From a virus (taxonomy: Duplodnaviria; Caudoviricetes), in IMG/VR virus record IMGVR_UViG_3300024520_000444, positions 1-25,883 of that record: a stretch of 25,883 nt of DNA. One strand, written 5' to 3'. Position 1 is the first letter of the stretch; each line of letters begins with the position of its first letter. The notes beneath the pieces were generated by a model. The model was given only the letters and a program-made list of their open reading frames with translations, was not told the origin of the DNA and did not search any database. A program made the position numbers and the translations under genes. Below are positions 8,405-18,195 of the stretch, one piece after another.

Positions 8405-8644
8405 TCACAGTTTCTTGTCAAGGGATTTCTGCGTGAGGTGGGCTGGTCGGAGGGTTCGATGCCCCTTTTTTAGTAAAATGCCCTTAGAAACAAGCTCATC
8501 CACTAAGGAATGCACCCATCCCACGCTTTTTACACCCAAATTCTCCGCAATTTCCTTGTATGTAGGCGCACAGTAGCGTTCAAGCCAGTAATTTTCCACA
8601 AACTCCAGTAAATCCGCCTGTTTTTTTGTTAAATTTTTTTCCAC
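8405..8644 (-). CDS. LexA-type winged-helix DNA-binding domain protein without peptidase domain
   Basis: LTKKQADLLEFV..APTYKEIAENLGVKS..VH..L.SKG resembles the LexA N-domain; GTG at 8644 with an AAGGA SD gives 79 aa. Confidence 0.75.
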   Translation of the reverse strand: MEKNLTKKQADLLEFVENYWLERYCAPTYKEIAENLGVKSVGWVHSLVDELVSKGILLKKGHRTLRPAHLTQKSLDKKL

Positions 8645-8873
8645 ACTAGGATTCCTTGAGCTAATTCCTGATAAATAAAGGTAAATGATACCAGAATGGT
8701 AGATCAAAGAAAAGAAGAAGGGGGGGGTCATAAAAATTGGGAATCTCTTGTGCAAAACTCTATTTACAATGAACTAGGAGTCCCAAGTGCGTGTAGGGGG
8801 GGTGTGGGGGTCGTATCTTCTTGATTTATGCGTGTACGCAAGGGGGGGGGTCTTTCTACTGGTGCGGATCGTT

Positions 8874-9335
8874 CTACTCAGAGATGACGAGTTTCAGCTT
8901 CTCTTTGATCTCAGCTTCGAGCTCTGAAGTGGTCTTGTTGTTATTGACTGTGACATTAACCTTAGACTCAGGATTAAATATATCGATCTCTCTGTGCTTG
9001 CCTAAGAGTTCGAGTGCCTTGAGTCTGCTACTTGGGTTATCGCCTTTGGTTTCTTCTACCAGTCGCTCCACAATGTAGCGAGAGAGAGAGTGGACAGAGG
9101 TCTGTAAATTCTGTTCTTTTCTAGCGGTTAGTGTCTGCACCCTTGAGGATACCTTGGGGTTGTTTAGCAGTTCATGTGCTGATCTGTGAACTGTGCTGTC
9201 TTTTGTACCTTGCTTGACGTTATATATCTTCCTGTATGCATCTGATGCTGAGTTGCCTTTAATGTATTCTTGGCAGAATAGTTCTTGCTTACTGGTTAGA
9301 GTAGGGATTGATTTCAGTTTAGGTCGATCAGTCAT
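8874..9335 (-). CDS. terS: Terminase small subunit
   Basis: LTSKQELFCQEYIKGNSASDAYRKIY..AHELLNNPKV..RLKALELLGK is typical of HTH-type TerS; upstream of TerL. Confidence 0.85.
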   Translation of the reverse strand: MTDRPKLKSIPTLTSKQELFCQEYIKGNSASDAYRKIYNVKQGTKDSTVHRSAHELLNNPKVSSRVQTLTARKEQNLQTSVHSLSRYIVERLVEETKGDNPSSRLKALELLGKHREIDIFNPESKVNVTVNNNKTTSELEAEIKEKLKLVISE

Positions 9336-9401
9336 AGACTGATTATATGATGCTCATCACCCCCCGATCAAGATTACAAAATGCTACCTCTATGCAGTCC
9401 T

Positions 9402-9421
9402 AATATTGACCAGTCATTATT
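9402..9421. repeat. 20-bp palindrome copy 1 (AATATTGACCAGTCATTATT)
   Basis: 19/20 match to consensus AATATTGACCAGTCAATATT; between the terS start and the early promoter. Confidence 0.9.
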
Positions 9422-9468
9422 TACTTTCCGATCTATGGATAAGTGATATCAATTAGATATATTAATGC

Positions 9469-9496
9469 TTGTATGAATATACCCATTTGATATACT
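9469..9496 (+). promoter_or_regulatory. Sigma70-like early promoter
   Basis: TTGTAT-16 bp-TATACT with an extended -10 TG (TGaTATACT) at the head of the plus-strand unit. Confidence 0.6.
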
Positions 9497-9502
9497 TCTT
9501 AT

Positions 9503-10075
9503 GTTGAATATCGTTTATATTTAGAGTCTGATTCAACTGGATGATAAAGGGACAAGTCCAATAGGTTAATACCGCCAAGTAGATAAGATCAAGTCCTGAA
9601 GAAAGTCAGAATTTCTTGACCGAGTCGATGCGGTGGTATCGATAAAGTGAGCGCCTTTTAGGTATAAGTTTCACTGGGTAAAAAATGAGTTTGTAGATTT
9701 CTCGTTACTGACAATTCAAATCTAGGGCTGAAACAAATGCCAACAGCAAGGATGGGAATCCGAAAATGTAAGTCTCTAAAGGGGGACTTGGAAGCATCTT
9801 CGAGATAACTGAGATTCTTGAACCCGATAGCCAGTAAATTTTTTAGGAAATTTTTAGCAGTCGATGAAAGCAGATTGATAGTGATGTCATGGTTGCCGAT
9901 TCAAATATCAGGATGACTTAGATCATATCAAGAACATTAATTATCTTTATCTCGAAAGACAAGCGCCAAGAAAGCCAAGATGGAAATCATAATGAGCATT
10001 GCGAGGTCTATATGAATAGTCCTAAGAATTTATTTATAACTGGCGAGAGTGGGGTTTCTCCCCTCGCTCTCGCAA
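9503..10075 (+). ncRNA. Candidate large structured RNA (~570 nt)
   Basis: No ORF in the track; many local and long-range complementary segments, e.g. 9581-9599 with 9908-9946; starts at the predicted transcription start and ends in a GC-rich hairpin at 10043-10073. Confidence 0.55.
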
Positions 10076-10156
10076 TACAGTTTAGTTCGCCTTAATCATA
10101 TTCATAACGAGTGTGATTAATGGGAATTATCCCAATTCATAATAGGAGAAAAAATT

Positions 10157-10639
10157 ATGAGAAAAATTACTAAAGAAAGTTCAGAAGCATTTGTGAATTT
10201 CGAGCAATACAAGAAGTCCAATACTGAAGTAGCAATTAAGTATGGATATTCATCTTCAGATGAAATCGCTAGATTTTATTTGCATGGGAATTGTATAGCT
10301 GAAATCAATAGATCAACATTGCCTGAATGTCGGGGATTAAAATCTATTGAGATTGATCTATGCGGATGGCATACACCAACCACTAGAGAAAGAATCAATG
10401 GCATTCTTGATGCACTTCATTATGACTTTAAGATCGCTCAGAGAAATCATGAGCAAGTCTTGGTTAGAATGAAAAACGAGAATCAGCATTGTTATGTGAC
10501 TGATTCAGATTTTAGCTACAGTTGGGAACAGGAATTGAAACTATCTGACGATAGTTTTGATCCCGAATTTGCTAAGAAAGTTTTTGCATCTAGCGAGTTC
10601 GTTAGTGGCACTGATCTGAATGCAATAACTGACTTTTAA
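10157..10639 (+). CDS. Hypothetical early phage protein
   Basis: 160 aa, strong TAGGAG SD; LHGNCIA..GWHTPTTRERING motif. Confidence 0.8.
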   Translation: MRKITKESSEAFVNFEQYKKSNTEVAIKYGYSSSDEIARFYLHGNCIAEINRSTLPECRGLKSIEIDLCGWHTPTTRERINGILDALHYDFKIAQRNHEQVLVRMKNENQHCYVTDSDFSYSWEQELKLSDDSFDPEFAKKVFASSEFVSGTDLNAITDF

Positions 10640-10708
10640 ATCAACTGATGAGCCTGTGAAACTCAGGCGAAACCCAATCGAAAGGTTGGGTCTTGATAAT
10701 AACTTTCA
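10640..10708 (+). ncRNA. Hammerhead ribozyme 1, type I
   Basis: Stem I ATCAA/TTGAT, core CTGATGA, stem II GCCTG/CAGGC, GAAA, stem III CCCAATC-GAAA-GGTTGGG, GUC site (cut after 10692); loop II TGAAA can pair with TTTCA at 10704-10708. Confidence 0.92.
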
Positions 10709-11248: not shown

Positions 11249-11300
11249 TGCTGTATAGGAATGTAATTCCTACTGATGATTGCGAAAGCATGAAACAGCA
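11249..11300 (+). ncRNA. Hammerhead ribozyme 2, type III
   Basis: Stem III TGCTG/CAGCA, GUA site (cut after 11255), stem I TAGGAAT-GTA-ATTCCTA, CTGATGA, stem II T-TGC-GAAA-GCA-T, GAAA. Confidence 0.88.
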
Positions 11301-11332: not shown

Positions 11333-12421
11333 ATGAGTAAATTAAAAGCTAGTGAACTAGTCGAAGTAATCTTACATAACTTAGAGAATGCATCGAACAG
11401 TGTGCCTTTCATAAAAGGAAGCCCCGCTATCGGTAAATCTTCTCTAGTCTTTGAGATTGCTCAGACTATTGCTGACAAATCTAAACTGAAACTGATCAGG
11501 GATCATAAGGATCGACCAATCTATAATGTGAAGCCAAAGAAAAATGAATTTGGTTTTGCTGATTTTAGGGTCGCCATGTATGAGCCAATAGACTTTTCAG
11601 GGTTGCCATATATCGATGATAAAACTGGCAGTCAGAAAAGAGCATTACTGGATAATCTGCCTACAGATAAAAACAGTAAAGGTCTTTTGTTTTTGGATGA
11701 AGTAGCCCAAGCAACTCCCGCTTTGCAAAATACGATTCGCCAACTGACTTTTGAAGGTCGCATTGGCACTGATTATGTTTTGCCTACTGGTTGGAAAATT
11801 ATCCTTGCGGGTAATCATTCAACCGATAGAGCGGGTGCACAAAGAATCTTGACTCACTTTCAATCTGCTTGTTTAACTTTGGAATTAGTTCCAGATACGA
11901 ACGAGTGGCTAGAGTGGGGATATGGGAATAATATTAATGCTGACATACTGGCATTCTTAACTTTCCAACCTCAAGAATTGCATCAATTTGATGCTAAGAA
12001 GGAGGGTGGATTTCCCGCACCGAGAATCTGGCATCAAGTAAGTGAGATGTTGAATGGTGATCTTAGACGATCACTGATACAGCCAGTCTTAGAATCTTAC
12101 TTGGGTGAAAGGGTTGCTAGAGAATTTGAAACTTTTTGTGCATTCCAAAATGAATTGGAATCGCCAACCAAAATTCTCAAAAGTCCAAAAACAGCAAAAC
12201 TACCTGAAAGGACAGAGTTGCAATATGCAAGTGTCGCATCTCTGATCAATGCGGTTGAAACTCCAAAGCAATTTGAAAATGCTCTGACTTATGTAGAGCG
12301 TTTTAATGCTAAAGAATATTCAGTTTTGTTTGTCAAAGCACTCACAACTAAAGAATCAAAATTCAAAGAGACTTCGGTCTTTATTGATTGGCACATTAAA
12401 AACCAAGATATCTTGGTTTAA
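11333..12421 (+). CDS. MoxR-like AAA+ ATPase
   Basis: Walker A GSPAIGKS, Walker B LLFLDE, ILAGN sensor, PAPR.W; VWA gene nearby. Confidence 0.85.
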   Translation: MSKLKASELVEVILHNLENASNSVPFIKGSPAIGKSSLVFEIAQTIADKSKLKLIRDHKDRPIYNVKPKKNEFGFADFRVAMYEPIDFSGLPYIDDKTGSQKRALLDNLPTDKNSKGLLFLDEVAQATPALQNTIRQLTFEGRIGTDYVLPTGWKIILAGNHSTDRAGAQRILTHFQSACLTLELVPDTNEWLEWGYGNNINADILAFLTFQPQELHQFDAKKEGGFPAPRIWHQVSEMLNGDLRRSLIQPVLESYLGERVAREFETFCAFQNELESPTKILKSPKTAKLPERTELQYASVASLINAVETPKQFENALTYVERFNAKEYSVLFVKALTTKESKFKETSVFIDWHIKNQDILV

Positions 12422-12518
12422 GTGGTCTAATCAAAACTTGATACACAATGGCACTACCTGATTTTTATCAGGGGATAAGGGTCTTTTTTGATTCTCCTAT
12501 ACCTTATTCGCCATTGTG

Positions 12519-12572
12519 TAATCCTCGTATGACATTAGTAGTCATGCCTGATGAGATACTTCGAAAGGATTA
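12519..12572 (+). ncRNA. Hammerhead ribozyme 3, type III
   Basis: Stem III TAATCC/GGATTA, CUC site (cut after 12526), stem I GTATGAC/GTCATGC, CTGATGA, 2-bp stem II GA-TACT-TC, GAAA; loop I AGTA is complementary to loop II TACT. Confidence 0.88.
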
Positions 12573-12611
12573 TGAATCAGTTAATTAACTTTTACTTATA
12601 GGAGAATAAAT

Positions 12612-13601
12612 ATGAGTAAGAAAAATAATGACAAGAAAACTGCATTAGCAGAATCTTGTGTGAAAGTTCAGGTCACTATAAAAACTTATAGTGGGATAAA
12701 GGCTGATACCAGTGCTAGAAATGAATTGGCAGATATTAAAAATGCCAACTCGGATTTAGTAAAAGTATCTAAGCATTTATTAGACCCTGAATATCTTAAA
12801 CCCCCAATTCAGGTTGGCAAACAATTCAGGAATCAAGTTATCTATAAGAAAACTTTACCTTGGATTGATGCTGACGATAAAGTTTTGGGTGGTGGCAAGT
12901 CATATGTCTCAGGAAACCGACAGGTGAAAAAAGGCGAATGGCGATTGCTACCCGCAACTGAATTGGAAGCGTTTGAGAAAGAAGTTAAGCGATATAAGAA
13001 AAACTTCGATGATGAGGTTGAAATTATATTGCGAGACTACTCAAAGAAAATCGAAGAAGCCAAGCAGAATCATGTTGGATTGGGTGATCTATTCAAAGAA
13101 TATGAATATCCAACACCTAATGATCTGCGAGATAGGTATATCTTTGATTATGAAATTGGAATCGTAAACGAGTTCAATCACAAAGATATTAGAGTGGCAA
13201 TATCTGAAGTCGCCAAATCTAATATCATTGCCAATCATAAAGAAGGCGAAGAAACTGTTAAGCAGAATGCCGATAAGCATACTGCAAAACAACTTGTTTC
13301 TAGCATCGAAAGATTGGCAAGTGGATTGGAAAAGTTTGATCCCAAAAACAAAAGCAAGAATCCATTAAGGGATAGTAGCTATAACGAGCTTAGAGATATG
13401 CTTGATTCAATAGATCAATATCTATTGGGTGATGATGATGATCTAAGATCAACTGTAGCTGACTTGAGAAAAGACATCATAGATGCAAAATCTCAAGACA
13501 ATCTCAAGAAGGATAACAAGGCTAGGAAATCCACAGCTAAGAAACTGAGACAGGCTGAAAAGAAGGTCAAAGTTTCTGACACTGCTAAAGGATTATTTTA
13601 G
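12612..13601 (+). CDS. Hypothetical helical protein of the AAA/VWA module (possibly DUF3150-like)
   Basis: 329 aa with strong SD; TLPW..RLLP..YPT motifs; lies between the ATPase and VWA genes; family call tentative. Confidence 0.65.
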   Translation: MSKKNNDKKTALAESCVKVQVTIKTYSGIKADTSARNELADIKNANSDLVKVSKHLLDPEYLKPPIQVGKQFRNQVIYKKTLPWIDADDKVLGGGKSYVSGNRQVKKGEWRLLPATELEAFEKEVKRYKKNFDDEVEIILRDYSKKIEEAKQNHVGLGDLFKEYEYPTPNDLRDRYIFDYEIGIVNEFNHKDIRVAISEVAKSNIIANHKEGEETVKQNADKHTAKQLVSSIERLASGLEKFDPKNKSKNPLRDSSYNELRDMLDSIDQYLLGDDDDLRSTVADLRKDIIDAKSQDNLKKDNKARKSTAKKLRQAEKKVKVSDTAKGLF

Positions 13602-13762: not shown

Positions 13763-15187
13763 ATGGATAAGCAAACAACTGCCAGTAAAGTGGCAGAACA
13801 CAACATCGTCAAAGCTAGAACCTCGATCATCCAAAAGGGTCATCTTGGTATGGCTTCGATGATTACTCCTTTGATTCTGAAAGAAGTTTCAAAGGATGTA
13901 TGTTCTACAATGGCAACCGATGGCACTCATATCTTTTGGTGTGAATCCTTTGTCAATGAATCGAGTCATGAAGAATTGGAATTCGTTCTAATGCATGAAG
14001 CGTTGCATTGCACTTGGGCACATCATCTCAGAAGAAATGATAGGAATCCTGAGTTATGGAATATCGCAACTGATTATGCAATCAATGGCGAGTTAAATAG
14101 ATCAGGTTCAATATCCTATTGGAAGATGCCAAAGGATGCATTGTATGACAGCAAATATGATGGCAAAACTGCTGACGAAATCTACGCTATATTGCTTCAG
14201 GAAAAAGATCAGAAAGATAAAGAAAATGATCAGTCTGATAATTCTTCTGACGATGGCGATCAATCCGATGGATCATCCGATGGTGATTCTGATGGTGATT
14301 CTAATGATCAAGATCAAAGCAATGGCGGTGATAAAAAAGATGGTGATGATTTGGCGAATGCTAATGAAGGTAAACCATCTAACACTAGCCAAGCGGGTGG
14401 TGTTTGGGATGCAGTGAGCCAAGATGGAAAACCATTAACCAAGCAAGAAAATATTGATGCTCAAAGAGAATTGGCTAACAAAGTCCGATTGGCTGACAGC
14501 ATGAGTCGATCTTGCGGTAGCGGTTATGACAATTCATTCAACCGAAGGGTGAATGAAATTGATGTGGAAACTGCCAACTATCTTGAGAAAATTCAGGATT
14601 GGTTGGTCAGCGTTTTCCCTGATCAAACATCTTGGAATCGACCACATAGAAACCATATATGGAAAGATTCTACTTACAAGAAAGGAAACTATCTTCCGAG
14701 TAGGGTCAGTTCAGTTATGGGTGGCACTTTGGCAATCGGTGTTGATGTATCAGGATCAACTTCTTATTACATGGATGGATTCATGTCTCAGATACAGGGG
14801 TTGGTTGAGCAATGCAACATTGAGAAGGTCAAAGTTTGTTGGTGTAGCACCATAGTTCATCATGACGAAGAAGGGAATTATTGGGATGAAGTTGACATCT
14901 CTGCGGGTGAATCTTTATTAGATATCACTCCTAGAGGTGGCGGTGGAACTGAATTAACTCCCATCTTTGAATTGGTGAATAACTATACCGATGATGTTGC
15001 TGACATACAGGGTCTAATTGTTTTTACTGATGGAGAATTTTACCCAGTAAAAGCAAAACATGAGCCTGATATTCCAGTCCTATGGGCAACCACTCGTATG
15101 GATTGGGGTGTGACTGAATCTGAGTTTGGGGAAGTAATCCATCTACCGCCCCATTGCCTAACAGCAGACTTAGATTTAGCTAGTTAG
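13763..15187 (+). CDS. HExxH metallopeptidase-like plus VWA domain protein (DUF2201-like)
   Basis: TMATDG, HEALH, WNIATDYAIN; acidic D/S/G linker; MIDAS-like DVSGS, GGGGT, FTDG. Confidence 0.88.
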   Translation: MDKQTTASKVAEHNIVKARTSIIQKGHLGMASMITPLILKEVSKDVCSTMATDGTHIFWCESFVNESSHEELEFVLMHEALHCTWAHHLRRNDRNPELWNIATDYAINGELNRSGSISYWKMPKDALYDSKYDGKTADEIYAILLQEKDQKDKENDQSDNSSDDGDQSDGSSDGDSDGDSNDQDQSNGGDKKDGDDLANANEGKPSNTSQAGGVWDAVSQDGKPLTKQENIDAQRELANKVRLADSMSRSCGSGYDNSFNRRVNEIDVETANYLEKIQDWLVSVFPDQTSWNRPHRNHIWKDSTYKKGNYLPSRVSSVMGGTLAIGVDVSGSTSYYMDGFMSQIQGLVEQCNIEKVKVCWCSTIVHHDEEGNYWDEVDISAGESLLDITPRGGGGTELTPIFELVNNYTDDVADIQGLIVFTDGEFYPVKAKHEPDIPVLWATTRMDWGVTESEFGEVIHLPPHCLTADLDLAS

Positions 15188-15353
15188 GATTGGTGCAAAA
15201 AGGGGGGTTTTAAGGGTATGTTATGCCCTTACTACCCCTCTAACTTTGCATTAGACGAGCAATGGTGAAGCCATTTTTTGTGAGATTCGTCTTAATAGCA
15301 TCATTTGGTGTTATTAAGGGGAATTATCCCAAACTCAAATAAGGAGAATTAAT

Positions 15354-15602
15354 ATGAGTGAACAATCATTAAAAGAAGTAGCAGTAAACCATGACGACAT
15401 TGAAAAACTAGAAACTGCCTTAGACTACATTATGTATGTGGCTAGAACAGGCGGTCATGTTTTTATGCCTGAAGATAAAAAAGACTTTAAGCCTTTTTTG
15501 TTAAGTGAGATAAAAAGATTTCTCAATGAAGTCATAGAGGATTGCATTCAGGAAAATCCTGAAGGTGCAGAAATATACAAACTAAAACCAACTGATGATT
15601 AG
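15354..15602 (+). CDS. Hypothetical protein; last codons overlap hammerhead 4
   Basis: 82 aa with an AAGGAG SD. Confidence 0.75.
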   Translation: MSEQSLKEVAVNHDDIEKLETALDYIMYVARTGGHVFMPEDKKDFKPFLLSEIKRFLNEVIEDCIQENPEGAEIYKLKPTDD

Positions 15603-15674
15603 CTGAAATGCTATGAAAGCCAATCGCAAGATTGGCTATTGGTGTCAGTGTAATGCTGACTAAATTAACTTTCA
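15587..15674 (+). ncRNA. Hammerhead ribozyme 4, type I
   Basis: Stem I ACCAA/TTGGT, CTGATGA, stem II T-TAGC-TGAAAT-GCTA-T, GAAA, stem III GCCAATC-GCAA-GATTGGC, CUA site (cut after 15638); loop II TGAAA can pair with TTTCA at 15670-15674. Confidence 0.9.
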
Positions 15675-16336: not shown

Positions 16337-16341
16337 GTGAT

Positions 16342-16380
16342 GATATTGACTGGTTGTTTTAATAATGACCAGTCAATATT
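16342..16380. repeat. 20-bp palindrome copy 4 (16361-16380) plus an inverted partial copy (16342-16358)
   Basis: GATATTGACTGGTTGTT-TT-AATAATGACCAGTCAATATT. Confidence 0.88.
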
Positions 16381-16590
16381 TGATTTCTCGTATGGTTTCC
16401 CTATTTACGTTTTGATAAACACTCATTTTGGGTGATGTCTAGGCATTACCCGACATGAGAAAATGCATTAGAACGTAAATAAGGAGTCCATTTTTCCTAG
16501 AATTAGTATGAAAATGCTAGTTTTGGGTGGATTTCTATTAATGGGCGATTCATTCGCCTTAATTTAATCTTACTATATAGGAGACAAATT

Positions 16591-16893
16591 ATGAGTAAGA
16601 AAAGAACTGTGCCATCTTTTGTAGCAGATGCTTATTTAGAAGCATTAACTATTTATGGCTACGACACTATGAACCATGAAAAGTATTGCTTTTCTGTAGA
16701 TCACTTTATAGATAACTATAAAGAATTTGCCAAAGATGATTTCTTTTGGATATTTCATTCCAAAGAAGAAAGAGATTCTTTTGCTTTAGATTCTTACAGA
16801 GAAGAATTAAATTGCGATTTTACTTATGGAGAAGCCAAAGAATATTTAGATGGCTTGAAAGAAATCGATCTTGATAAGGCGGTGTCATCATGA
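16591..16893 (+). CDS. Hypothetical protein
   Basis: 100 aa with a TAGGAG SD. Confidence 0.75.
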   Translation: MSKKRTVPSFVADAYLEALTIYGYDTMNHEKYCFSVDHFIDNYKEFAKDDFFWIFHSKEERDSFALDSYREELNCDFTYGEAKEYLDGLKEIDLDKAVSS

Positions 16894-17075: not shown

Positions 17076-17094
17076 TTATAAATAAATAAAACTT

Positions 17095-17147
17095 GACCCT
17101 ATCGGTCTATGTCTTTTTAGATGTGGATCGGTAGGGTCTTTTTTTTT
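17095..17147 (+). terminator. Intrinsic terminator ending the early unit
   Basis: 20-bp stem GACCCTATCGGTCTATGTCT/AGATGTGGATCGGTAGGGTC (with G-U pairs) followed by T9. Confidence 0.9.
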
Positions 17148-17339
17148 GGTCTAAATTTTGGGGCAAATCTAAAATATTTTTACAGGGAGATGGCAAAAAG
17201 TGAAAATATTTTATTTTTGGTGTGGGAGCTGACGGGAGTTTTTCCAAAGCCGTGTAAAAACTAAAAATATTTTTTTACCCCAGCAACGAAAAGTTCTGCA
17301 TGGTTTGGTCGGTATATATTCCAACACTACCTTTAACTA

Positions 17340-17359
17340 AATATTGACCAGTCAATATT
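17340..17359. repeat. 20-bp palindrome copy 5 (perfect)
   Basis: AATATTGACCAGTCAATATT, intergenic. Confidence 0.92.
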
Positions 17360-17427
17360 ACACGCACTAAGATACCAAGAAGTTATTGTCATACTTATTT
17401 GGAGTTAGTCTTTTGATATCTTTATGA

Positions 17428-17455
17428 TTGCATTATTTGGTTAAATCATTATAAT
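17428..17455 (+). promoter_or_regulatory. Sigma70-like promoter
   Basis: TTGCAT-16 bp-TATAAT upstream of the 17491 ORF. Confidence 0.5.
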
Positions 17456-17490
17456 TTGTATTAAATATAAACGCATTCAGAGTAATTATC

Positions 17491-18195
17491 ATGAGTAAAG
17501 AAAAAGACATCCTAACACCATCACAGATTGAGCCTAATCTTCCTACAGATTATTCAACTCCTAGTGCTCACTGCAATCTGTCTGTTTTGCAAGAAGCAGA
17601 GGAAACAAACTCCATTCTAAAAACAAAAAACGAAGGTGCTGATCCTGAATATGTTGCCCTGTTGGATGAAAAAGGAAAGATGCAACAAGAAGGAGTATTA
17701 GCAGATAAGAAAAAAACAAGCAGAAAACCTTTAGACAGGCAAATTGTAGAGAAATTTCTAATCAATAGAGAGTTTAATATTGATGAAAAGAAAGGTCAGT
17801 ACATAGATCACAGAGGTCATGTAAGAACAGAAAAAGAAAGAAAATATCCTGTAGATGTTCATCTACTCAAAAAAATATGTGCTATGCATCCCATCGTAAG
17901 GAATGTTCACAAATTAGTAAACATTTGTGGCTTTCATAAAACAATGTATGCAAGACTCAGCCCCGCAAGTGCAACTGTTAGAAAAGCAATCAACAAAGAA
18001 ATGATGACAAAGATTGCTGAAATCTTAGAGCTAGATGACTGGAGAATTTTAATAGACCGAGAAGAATTAGATGCTCTGTCGAAAAAAGAGCAGAGGATAA
18101 AGCAGATAAAAGAAGATATGGAATCTTACAGAAGCAAAATTCAAGGCTTGCAAAAAGAATTAAAAAAACAAAAACGAGGAGTAAACGATGATTAA
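17491..18195 (+). CDS. Hypothetical protein, possible Cro/CI-like HTH plus coiled coil
   Basis: 234 aa; KLVNICGFHKTMYARL..INKEMMTKIAEILE loosely resembles an XRE HTH. Confidence 0.6.
   Translation: MSKEKDILTPSQIEPNLPTDYSTPSAHCNLSVLQEAEETNSILKTKNEGADPEYVALLDEKGKMQQEGVLADKKKTSRKPLDRQIVEKFLINREFNIDEKKGQYIDHRGHVRTEKERKYPVDVHLLKKICAMHPIVRNVHKLVNICGFHKTMYARLSPASATVRKAINKEMMTKIAEILELDDWRILIDREELDALSKKEQRIKQIKEDMESYRSKIQGLQKELKKQKRGVNDD

Follow-up and report, generated by a model that had tools for sequence, protein, structure and literature searches.

To our knowledge, large ornate bacterial RNAs are rare, and we know of no phage-borne one with a known job. The early leader of T7 combines a host-type promoter, an untranslated stretch and an RNase III processing site before the first gene, and we do not know it as a pseudoknotted, covarying RNA. 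Among the large RNAs, ROOL is described as averaging 581 nt, containing three pseudoknots, lying often near tRNAs in phages or prophages and forming an RNA-only nanocage (Weinberg et al. 2017, PMC5737381; Kretsch et al. 2025, PMC12286853); GOLLD is described as phage-associated, derived from marine metagenomes and often over 800 nt (PMC12286853). Hammerhead ribozymes have been reported in arrays around changing genes in phages and prophages, and they cleave in vitro (Perreault et al. 2011, PMC3088659). The intergenic regions of IMG/VR have also been mined, yielding 10,006 candidates (Fremin et al. 2023, PMC10690425).

The window analysed here, 25.9 kb of marine phage DNA, carries portal, terL, terS, GroES, primase-helicase and small early genes. 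The public runs that match it best are seawater metagenomes and viromes. Its terL shares 53-57% identity with those of the pelagiphages HTVC027P and HTVC023P and of two related records, but the genes around terL are arranged differently. Between terS (8874-9335, minus strand; PHROG 51, E 6e-21; Pfam PF03592) and a run of plus-strand genes sits a gap of 821 nt (9336-10156), in agreement with the ORF-free gap of about 820 bp noticed in the original prediction; the small ORFs inside it are at most 38 aa long, with no frame conserved across indels in the homologs. The gap contains the candidate plus-strand non-coding RNA, with a predicted extent in the window of 9503-10075 (573 nt), and is followed by the first early gene (10157-10639, plus strand; Pfam PF23790, E 4e-12), which is exchangeable between relatives. 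The promoter already proposed for this RNA (9469-9496, plus strand) has a weak -35 (TTGTAT) and a plausible extended -10 (TG-n-TATACT), but is absent from the list given by a consensus scan. Across 40 homologs the -10 hexamer reads TATAAT in 17, TATACT in 19 and TATATT in 4, and because the motif served as the anchor for extracting homologs, its presence there is not independent evidence. A strong sigma-70-like promoter for terS (10/12; 9342-9371, minus strand) lies back to back with it.

Like the T7 early leader, the locus has a predicted host-type promoter, an untranslated leader and a predicted processing site before the first gene, although the genes seen do not make this phage T7-like. 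Like ROOL, the RNA is phage-borne and of similar size, with three pseudoknots, multistem junctions and a variable internal region, the likeness being one of size and pseudoknot count. It differs from ROOL in having no covariance-model match and no adjacent tRNAs, in belonging to one marine phage clade, and in heading an early unit and ending at a ribozyme or stem. Set beside those parts of the GOLLD description used here, it shares a conserved 3′ region and a more variable 5′ region, which is a likeness of build only, but is shorter (437-663 nt), with no model match and no tRNA context.

No Rfam model reaches its gathering score in the window, and none of the seven weak matches to 9300-10200 at E up to 10 (E 2.5-9.8) is credible. 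The models of ROOL, GOLLD, group I, group II and RNase P match neither 9300-10200 (E up to 10) nor six homologs (E up to 1); hence the earlier view that the RNA fits neither ROOL nor GOLLD stands. The window holds no tRNA, and neither does any of the 20 (short) loci scanned. Moreover, no published description of this RNA family was found in the literature, surveyed mostly at listing level. In six of the supplementary files of Fremin et al. 2023, three core motifs spelled both as DNA and as RNA gave 0 matches; fragments of the RNA may be among the 10,006 candidates of that survey. Judged by its sequence, this is a family of large ornate phage RNAs that had not been filed before, similar in build to ROOL and GOLLD. 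The 'new class' raised in the original prediction thus holds as a new family, but its build places the RNA within a known kind.

Homologs were sought in viral and metagenome collections through terS, the first early gene and motif patterns. This yielded 40 distinct full-length homologs from marine phages, the window included, which reduce to 17 representatives at 95% identity. Partial loci (12 in all) and pattern matches in unrelated coding DNA were left out, and a locus identical to the window (L250) was not counted separately. Lengths run from about 437 to 663 nt, with natural short (~440 nt) and long (~660 nt) forms. In 35 of the 40, terS is upstream and divergent, the remaining five having too little flank, while the next downstream gene belongs to 18 families among the 37 translatable homologs. 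One copy of the RNA was found per record in 5/5 records searched. Whole modules of the RNA differ between close relatives, and six homologs (L006, L258, L071, L215, L220 and L255) have another folded 5′ half with the core kept. Two covariance models built from the conserved core found no homolog in 99 further loci (mainly distant relatives by terS) and none around terL of four cultured or isolated relatives (HTVC023P, HTVC027P, DSL-LC04 and 023Pt_psg01). The best scores outside the family, 25.3 and 23.8 bits, both fell on the motif that had fetched the locus. Thus, the family is clade-restricted at this sensitivity. A blastn search against 50,697 phage records returned just two trivial matches of 32-34 nt. 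Most of what pattern scans picked up in viral contigs was chance similarity within coding sequence, and the scan of a genome collection gave eight loci, none homologous.

The complementary segments listed in the original prediction are all present in the window. However, 873 stems of at least 5 bp can be drawn in the RNA stretch, and 9503-10075 folded alone does no better than shuffled controls (MFE z -1.13; 13/100 shuffles fold equally well); among the homologs listed, single-sequence z ranges from -0.7 to -6.0, roughly estimated from 12 shuffles each. The window's own complementarity is therefore within chance, and the case rests on the homologs. In a 112-pair model applied to 17 long-type homologs, 95.1% of cells are paired and 25 pairs show two-sided change, compared with 36-49% and 2-5 pairs in slid controls; the homologs are related and mosaic, so that cell counts overstate independent events, and stem a of pseudoknot 1 is misaligned in this alignment (55.8% paired). 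The covariation originally called for among homologs beside terS is thus found. Separate alignments of the 3′ core (26 rows) and middle core (22 rows) agree with the model, as does RNAalifold on 17 short types (two-sided change in 27/81 pairs). Two-sided changes stay canonical in 26/33 model variants versus 464/1173 (40%) in decoy stems, a control of 861 stems that also pair in the window and that keeps the relatedness of the homologs, used in place of a tree-based covariation test; its p-value of 7e-6 is optimistic, as the model was drawn while viewing the same sequences. At model pairs there are 122 G-U cells and 13 A-C cells, an excess that indicates a plus-strand RNA and not a DNA fold. 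The conserved core has 79 invariant columns, and base pairs that switch are seen in anchored tables for pseudoknots 1 and 2 and for the GGGA, GNRA and terminal hairpins. Lone pairs such as 9766-10000 were rejected, since a free column-pair scan gave many isolated chance pairs. Taken together, 9503-10075 is almost certainly a structured RNA, and homolog covariation supports the earlier call of a large pseudoknotted non-coding RNA heading the early region.

The RNA begins with a hairpin near the predicted +1 (9503-9537; coordinates here are on the plus strand), which appears in single-sequence folds, differs in sequence between types and has RNAalifold pairs with two-sided changes in the short types. 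The GTTGAAT/ATTCAAC pairing proposed for it recurs by position in the folds of each type but not by sequence (78/118 cells, columns unaligned). In pseudoknot 1 (9538-9597), 9538-42 pairs with 9556-60, fully in 34/34 homologs with three sequence types. This helix is crossed by 9549-53 with 9593-97, fully paired in 28 of the 31 homologs extracted, with a GG-to-GA/CC-to-UC change; three more homologs have UA for CG. Pseudoknot 3 (9605-9712) is a loop-loop helix of 9605-09 with 9708-12 that ties the 5′ domain to pseudoknot 2; it first came up among the decoy stems and is fully paired in 34/34 main-type homologs, in five sequence combinations. Pseudoknot 2 (9684-9724) is of the H-type, with 9684-89 paired to 9701-06 and crossed by 9694-9700 with 9718-24. 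It corresponds to AATGAG/CTCGTT and TAGATTT/AAATCTA, which the original prediction had already noted as crossing helices, kept in 102/102 and 119/119 cells of the 17 long-type homologs. Each of its stems shows two-sided changes. The two further pseudoknots and the 3′ processing element had been overlooked.

The 5′ half of the conserved core (9726-9785) comprises a stem (9726-41), an invariant AACAG, a GGGA tetraloop hairpin (9750-61), the 5′ strand of helix X (9767-73) and a purine run (9781-86). It is followed by a variable domain (9787-9970) of 65-190 nt, present as a ~65-nt form in short homologs, whose closing stem has two-sided change at all 5 pairs. The 3′ half of the core (9972-10042) contains a GNRA hairpin (9979-88), a second hairpin (10004-23) and the other strand of helix X (10032-38); the GNRA loops vary within their class among homologs. 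Helix X forms 7/7 pairs in 40/40 homologs with one two-sided change, and it overlaps the search patterns, so that its pairing is partly fixed by how the homologs were found; the long-range helix is nonetheless likely real. The terminal 12-bp hairpin (10043-10073) has a loop, UUUCUCC (10055-61), that is invariant in 40/40 homologs on a stem with eight sequence versions. Likenesses inside the RNA to hammerhead, HDV, TPP, SAM-II/V, domain V and tetraloop-receptor motifs were rejected because the required pairings are absent.

The remaining helices of the original prediction, counted in the same 17 long-type homologs, fared unevenly. The closing hairpin (204/204 cells, 14 two-sided changes) and TTCTTGA/TCAAGAA (102/113, 11 two-sided changes) are kept, as is AGTGA/TCACT (45/45) within the window subtype only. 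Four others fail outside the subtype of the window: ATACCGCC/GGTGGTAT (85/136), GATC/GATC (42/67), GAGTCG/CGATTC (67/102) and GGGT/ACCC (45/60); for AAGTCTCT/GGGGACTT the inner pairs hold and the rest does not. The long-range helix drawn between 9581-9599 and 9908-9946 is mostly unsupported, because its 3′ side lies in the domain missing from short homologs and its strands covary with local partners. Its GACTT strand is missing in 7/17 homologs. Its AGATAA (9581)/TTATCT (9941) segment is conserved in 99/102 cells with zero two-sided changes, and may be a true pairing.

Downstream of the RNA, the window carries an irregular stem of ~20 bp (10083-10129, plus strand), a predicted RNase III-like processing site. 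This stem is found in 24 of the 40 homologs, the window included, and its slot in the other 16 is taken by a type III hammerhead. All 16 hammerhead candidates have the core CUGANGA...GAAA, an NUH triplet and stems I and III, with 5/5 pairs in both stems for 15 of them, and the predicted cut falls 7-14 nt downstream of the RNA. Rfam RF00008 matches the hammerhead abutting the RNA in L071 at E 1.9e-4, below its gathering score. A one-base core insertion occurs in the hammerheads after the RNA (L006, L008, L071 and relatives), 12/16 reading CUGAAUGA or CUGAACGA and one CUGACUGA. The stem exists in 19 distinct versions, with an upper stem of 12-13 bp that has two-sided changes at four positions and with 5-7 lower pairs. 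RNase III substrates as a rule present about two turns of irregular double helix, and its sequence leads us to read the stem as a putative RNase III-like site, one that would be cleaved. With a hammerhead or a covarying stem right after it, the RNA is quite probably released from the early transcript as a discrete molecule. The 3′ stem is weakly similar to Rfam RT-14 (E 7.4), a match that overlaps this stem only and was rejected as chance-level. The same type of stem occurs at 15284-15331 (plus strand) in the window and before other genes in L008, L135, L201, L205, L248, L258 and L262. Its flanks are conserved and its upper helix covaries, and this mobile inter-gene stem stands in slots that can also be filled by hammerheads. 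It is predicted to be either a site for RNase III or a self-cleaving element of an undescribed kind.

Three further hammerheads precede early genes in the window (10640-10697, 11250-11300 and 15587-15643, plus strand; types I, III and I), found by a strict scan that gave none in 30 shuffles and missed by Rfam gathering scores. A fourth, of type III with a one-pair stem II, was recognized by eye (12519-12573, plus strand). As in the published arrays, hammerheads separate changing small genes, and the prediction is that they divide one long transcript into units; the large RNA at the array head and the stem replacing the ribozyme are not described in the sections of that report used here, which account for the 3′ end of the RNA only (PMC3088659).

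Starting from the fold, its strand, the fixed position, the independence from the downstream gene and the 3′ cleavage-type element, all of which are observed, the following course of events can be proposed. The RNA would likely be transcribed first in the early region, from a host-type promoter, and would likely be cut free at its 3′ end by the hammerhead or the RNase III-like stem. The hairpins at its 5′ and 3′ ends may lend it stability, and the freed RNA may work in trans early in infection, much as has been proposed for ROOL and GOLLD, as a stable and compact particle to which a host factor binds or by which it is sequestered. In our analysis, such a trans-acting binding particle, rather than a leader, antisense RNA or enzyme, has about an even chance of being correct. 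Probable release, end hairpins, three pseudoknots, 79 invariant columns and no tie to a neighbouring gene make it the best reading. The parallel to ROOL and GOLLD, as far as their descriptions are drawn on here, also favours it in size, three pseudoknots, conserved 3′ and variable 5′ regions, and an exchangeable domain. Against it, the window itself carries the stem and no hammerhead in the slot after the RNA, the one-clade family with fast-swapping modules is unlike a deeply conserved machine, and the analysis turned up neither a partner nor an oligomer interface nor a tRNA cluster. The signal in RNA runs is also limited: in one metatranscriptome, the sole contig over 8400-11400 lies inside the RNA (230 nt, depth 2.4), and a second run has a contig that extends across the promoter, a sign of DNA carry-over. 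RNA runs X23 and X24 have no piece on the RNA, which carries no weight.

The RNA could instead be a cis-acting leader, like the long one of T7 early RNA, with a fold that shields the early transcript at its 5′ end or sets the pace of its transcription and processing and that has no role once cut. It is always first in the early unit, in single copy, and its modules turn over fast; since cleavage elements precede most early genes, release could also be a by-product. However, a hairpin would do for protection, without three pseudoknots or 79 invariant columns in the core, and cleavage 7-14 nt past the RNA would part it from the very mRNA it should protect. The position of the RNA, fixed beside terS while the next gene comes from 18 families, argues against a gene-specific cis element as well. 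We consider a cis-acting leader unlikely, though the most probable of the alternatives.

The invariant terminal loop brings up a regulatory alternative. Its sequence, UUUCUCC, is complementary to GGAGAAA, the ribosome-binding site that serves the first early gene (10145-10151, plus strand), and all three GGAGAAA sites on the plus strand of the window are ribosome-binding sites of early genes. By pairing with such sites, the RNA might silence mRNAs, either those of early phage genes, as a timer, or those of the host, or it might hold the first gene back until cleavage. The loop is invariant in 40/40 homologs on a freely covarying stem, and its duplex with GGAGAAA is predicted at -8.4 kcal/mol versus -6.0 for its internal partner, the purine run at 9781-86. 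Yet the loop can pair with this partner instead (5 or 6 of 6 pairs in 36/40 homologs; 3/6 with its counterpart in the four most divergent), and it does not covary with the ribosome-binding site, as relatives with GGAGUAA and GGAGAAU keep the same loop. Moreover, 7 nt cannot explain a 575-nt fold. An anti-ribosome-binding-site RNA thus appears distinctly unlikely.

The conserved core with its variable periphery might also belong to a ribozyme of a new class, or to a degenerate intron- or RNase P-like RNA. Invariant unpaired AACAG, AAGAA and GAAA surround a long-range helix with a swappable domain, and this phage makes heavy use of ribozymes. The catalytic cores used for comparison are marked by the P7 G-site of group I, the domain V triad helix of group II and P4 of RNase P. 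By eye, neither a P7 G-site nor a domain V triad helix nor a full P4 was seen; the corresponding models give no match at E up to 10 (up to 1 in six homologs), and the RNA interrupts no gene. A catalytic role is accordingly improbable. That the folds act in ssDNA or an R-loop, as part of a DNA-level element (an origin or a signal for packaging or entry) or of an RNA that primes replication, is very improbable, because the placement beside terS and near a GC-skew turn at about 8500 is outweighed by the one-strand G-U bias, GNRA loops that vary within their class, a ribozyme on the same strand, a skew turn that follows gene direction and the phage's own primase-helicase.

Returning to the trans-acting particle, the family offers a clean test case: its promoter is predicted in detail, a ribozyme would define the 3′ end of many members, and one exposed loop is invariant. 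The short (~440 nt) and long (~660 nt) forms mark dispensable domains, and the short ones suit probing and cryo-EM. A bolder proposal, which we regard as rather unlikely, is that these RNAs found a class of ribozyme-released, first-expressed phage RNAs, with protein-free host takeover through a loop that captures ribosome-binding sites or ribosomes, or through a new-ribozyme core. If it is true that the first product of the phage is a protein-free RNA machine, this would be a new mode of host takeover in abundant ocean viruses.

Several other features of the window were noted. A 20-bp palindrome occurs in nine copies (9402, 11221, 13689, 16361, 17340, 18694, 20491, 23261 and 25474), with 17 strand matches at the nine sites and 0 in 100 shuffles; one of these operator-like sites (9402-9421, no strand) lies in the gap upstream of the RNA. 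A small gene at 8405-8755 (minus strand) encodes a LexA DNA-binding domain (E 7e-9), and it and the nine palindromes are likely a phage regulator and its operators. Genes for an ATPase and for a DUF2201 metallopeptidase/VWA-like protein also lie in the early region (11333-12421 and 13763-15187, plus strand), possibly a chaperone-like pair. Finally, long near-perfect inverted repeats lie in the early intergenic gaps 12422-12612, 15188-15354, 16337-16591 and 17076-17491, and are perhaps terminators or small miniature elements.
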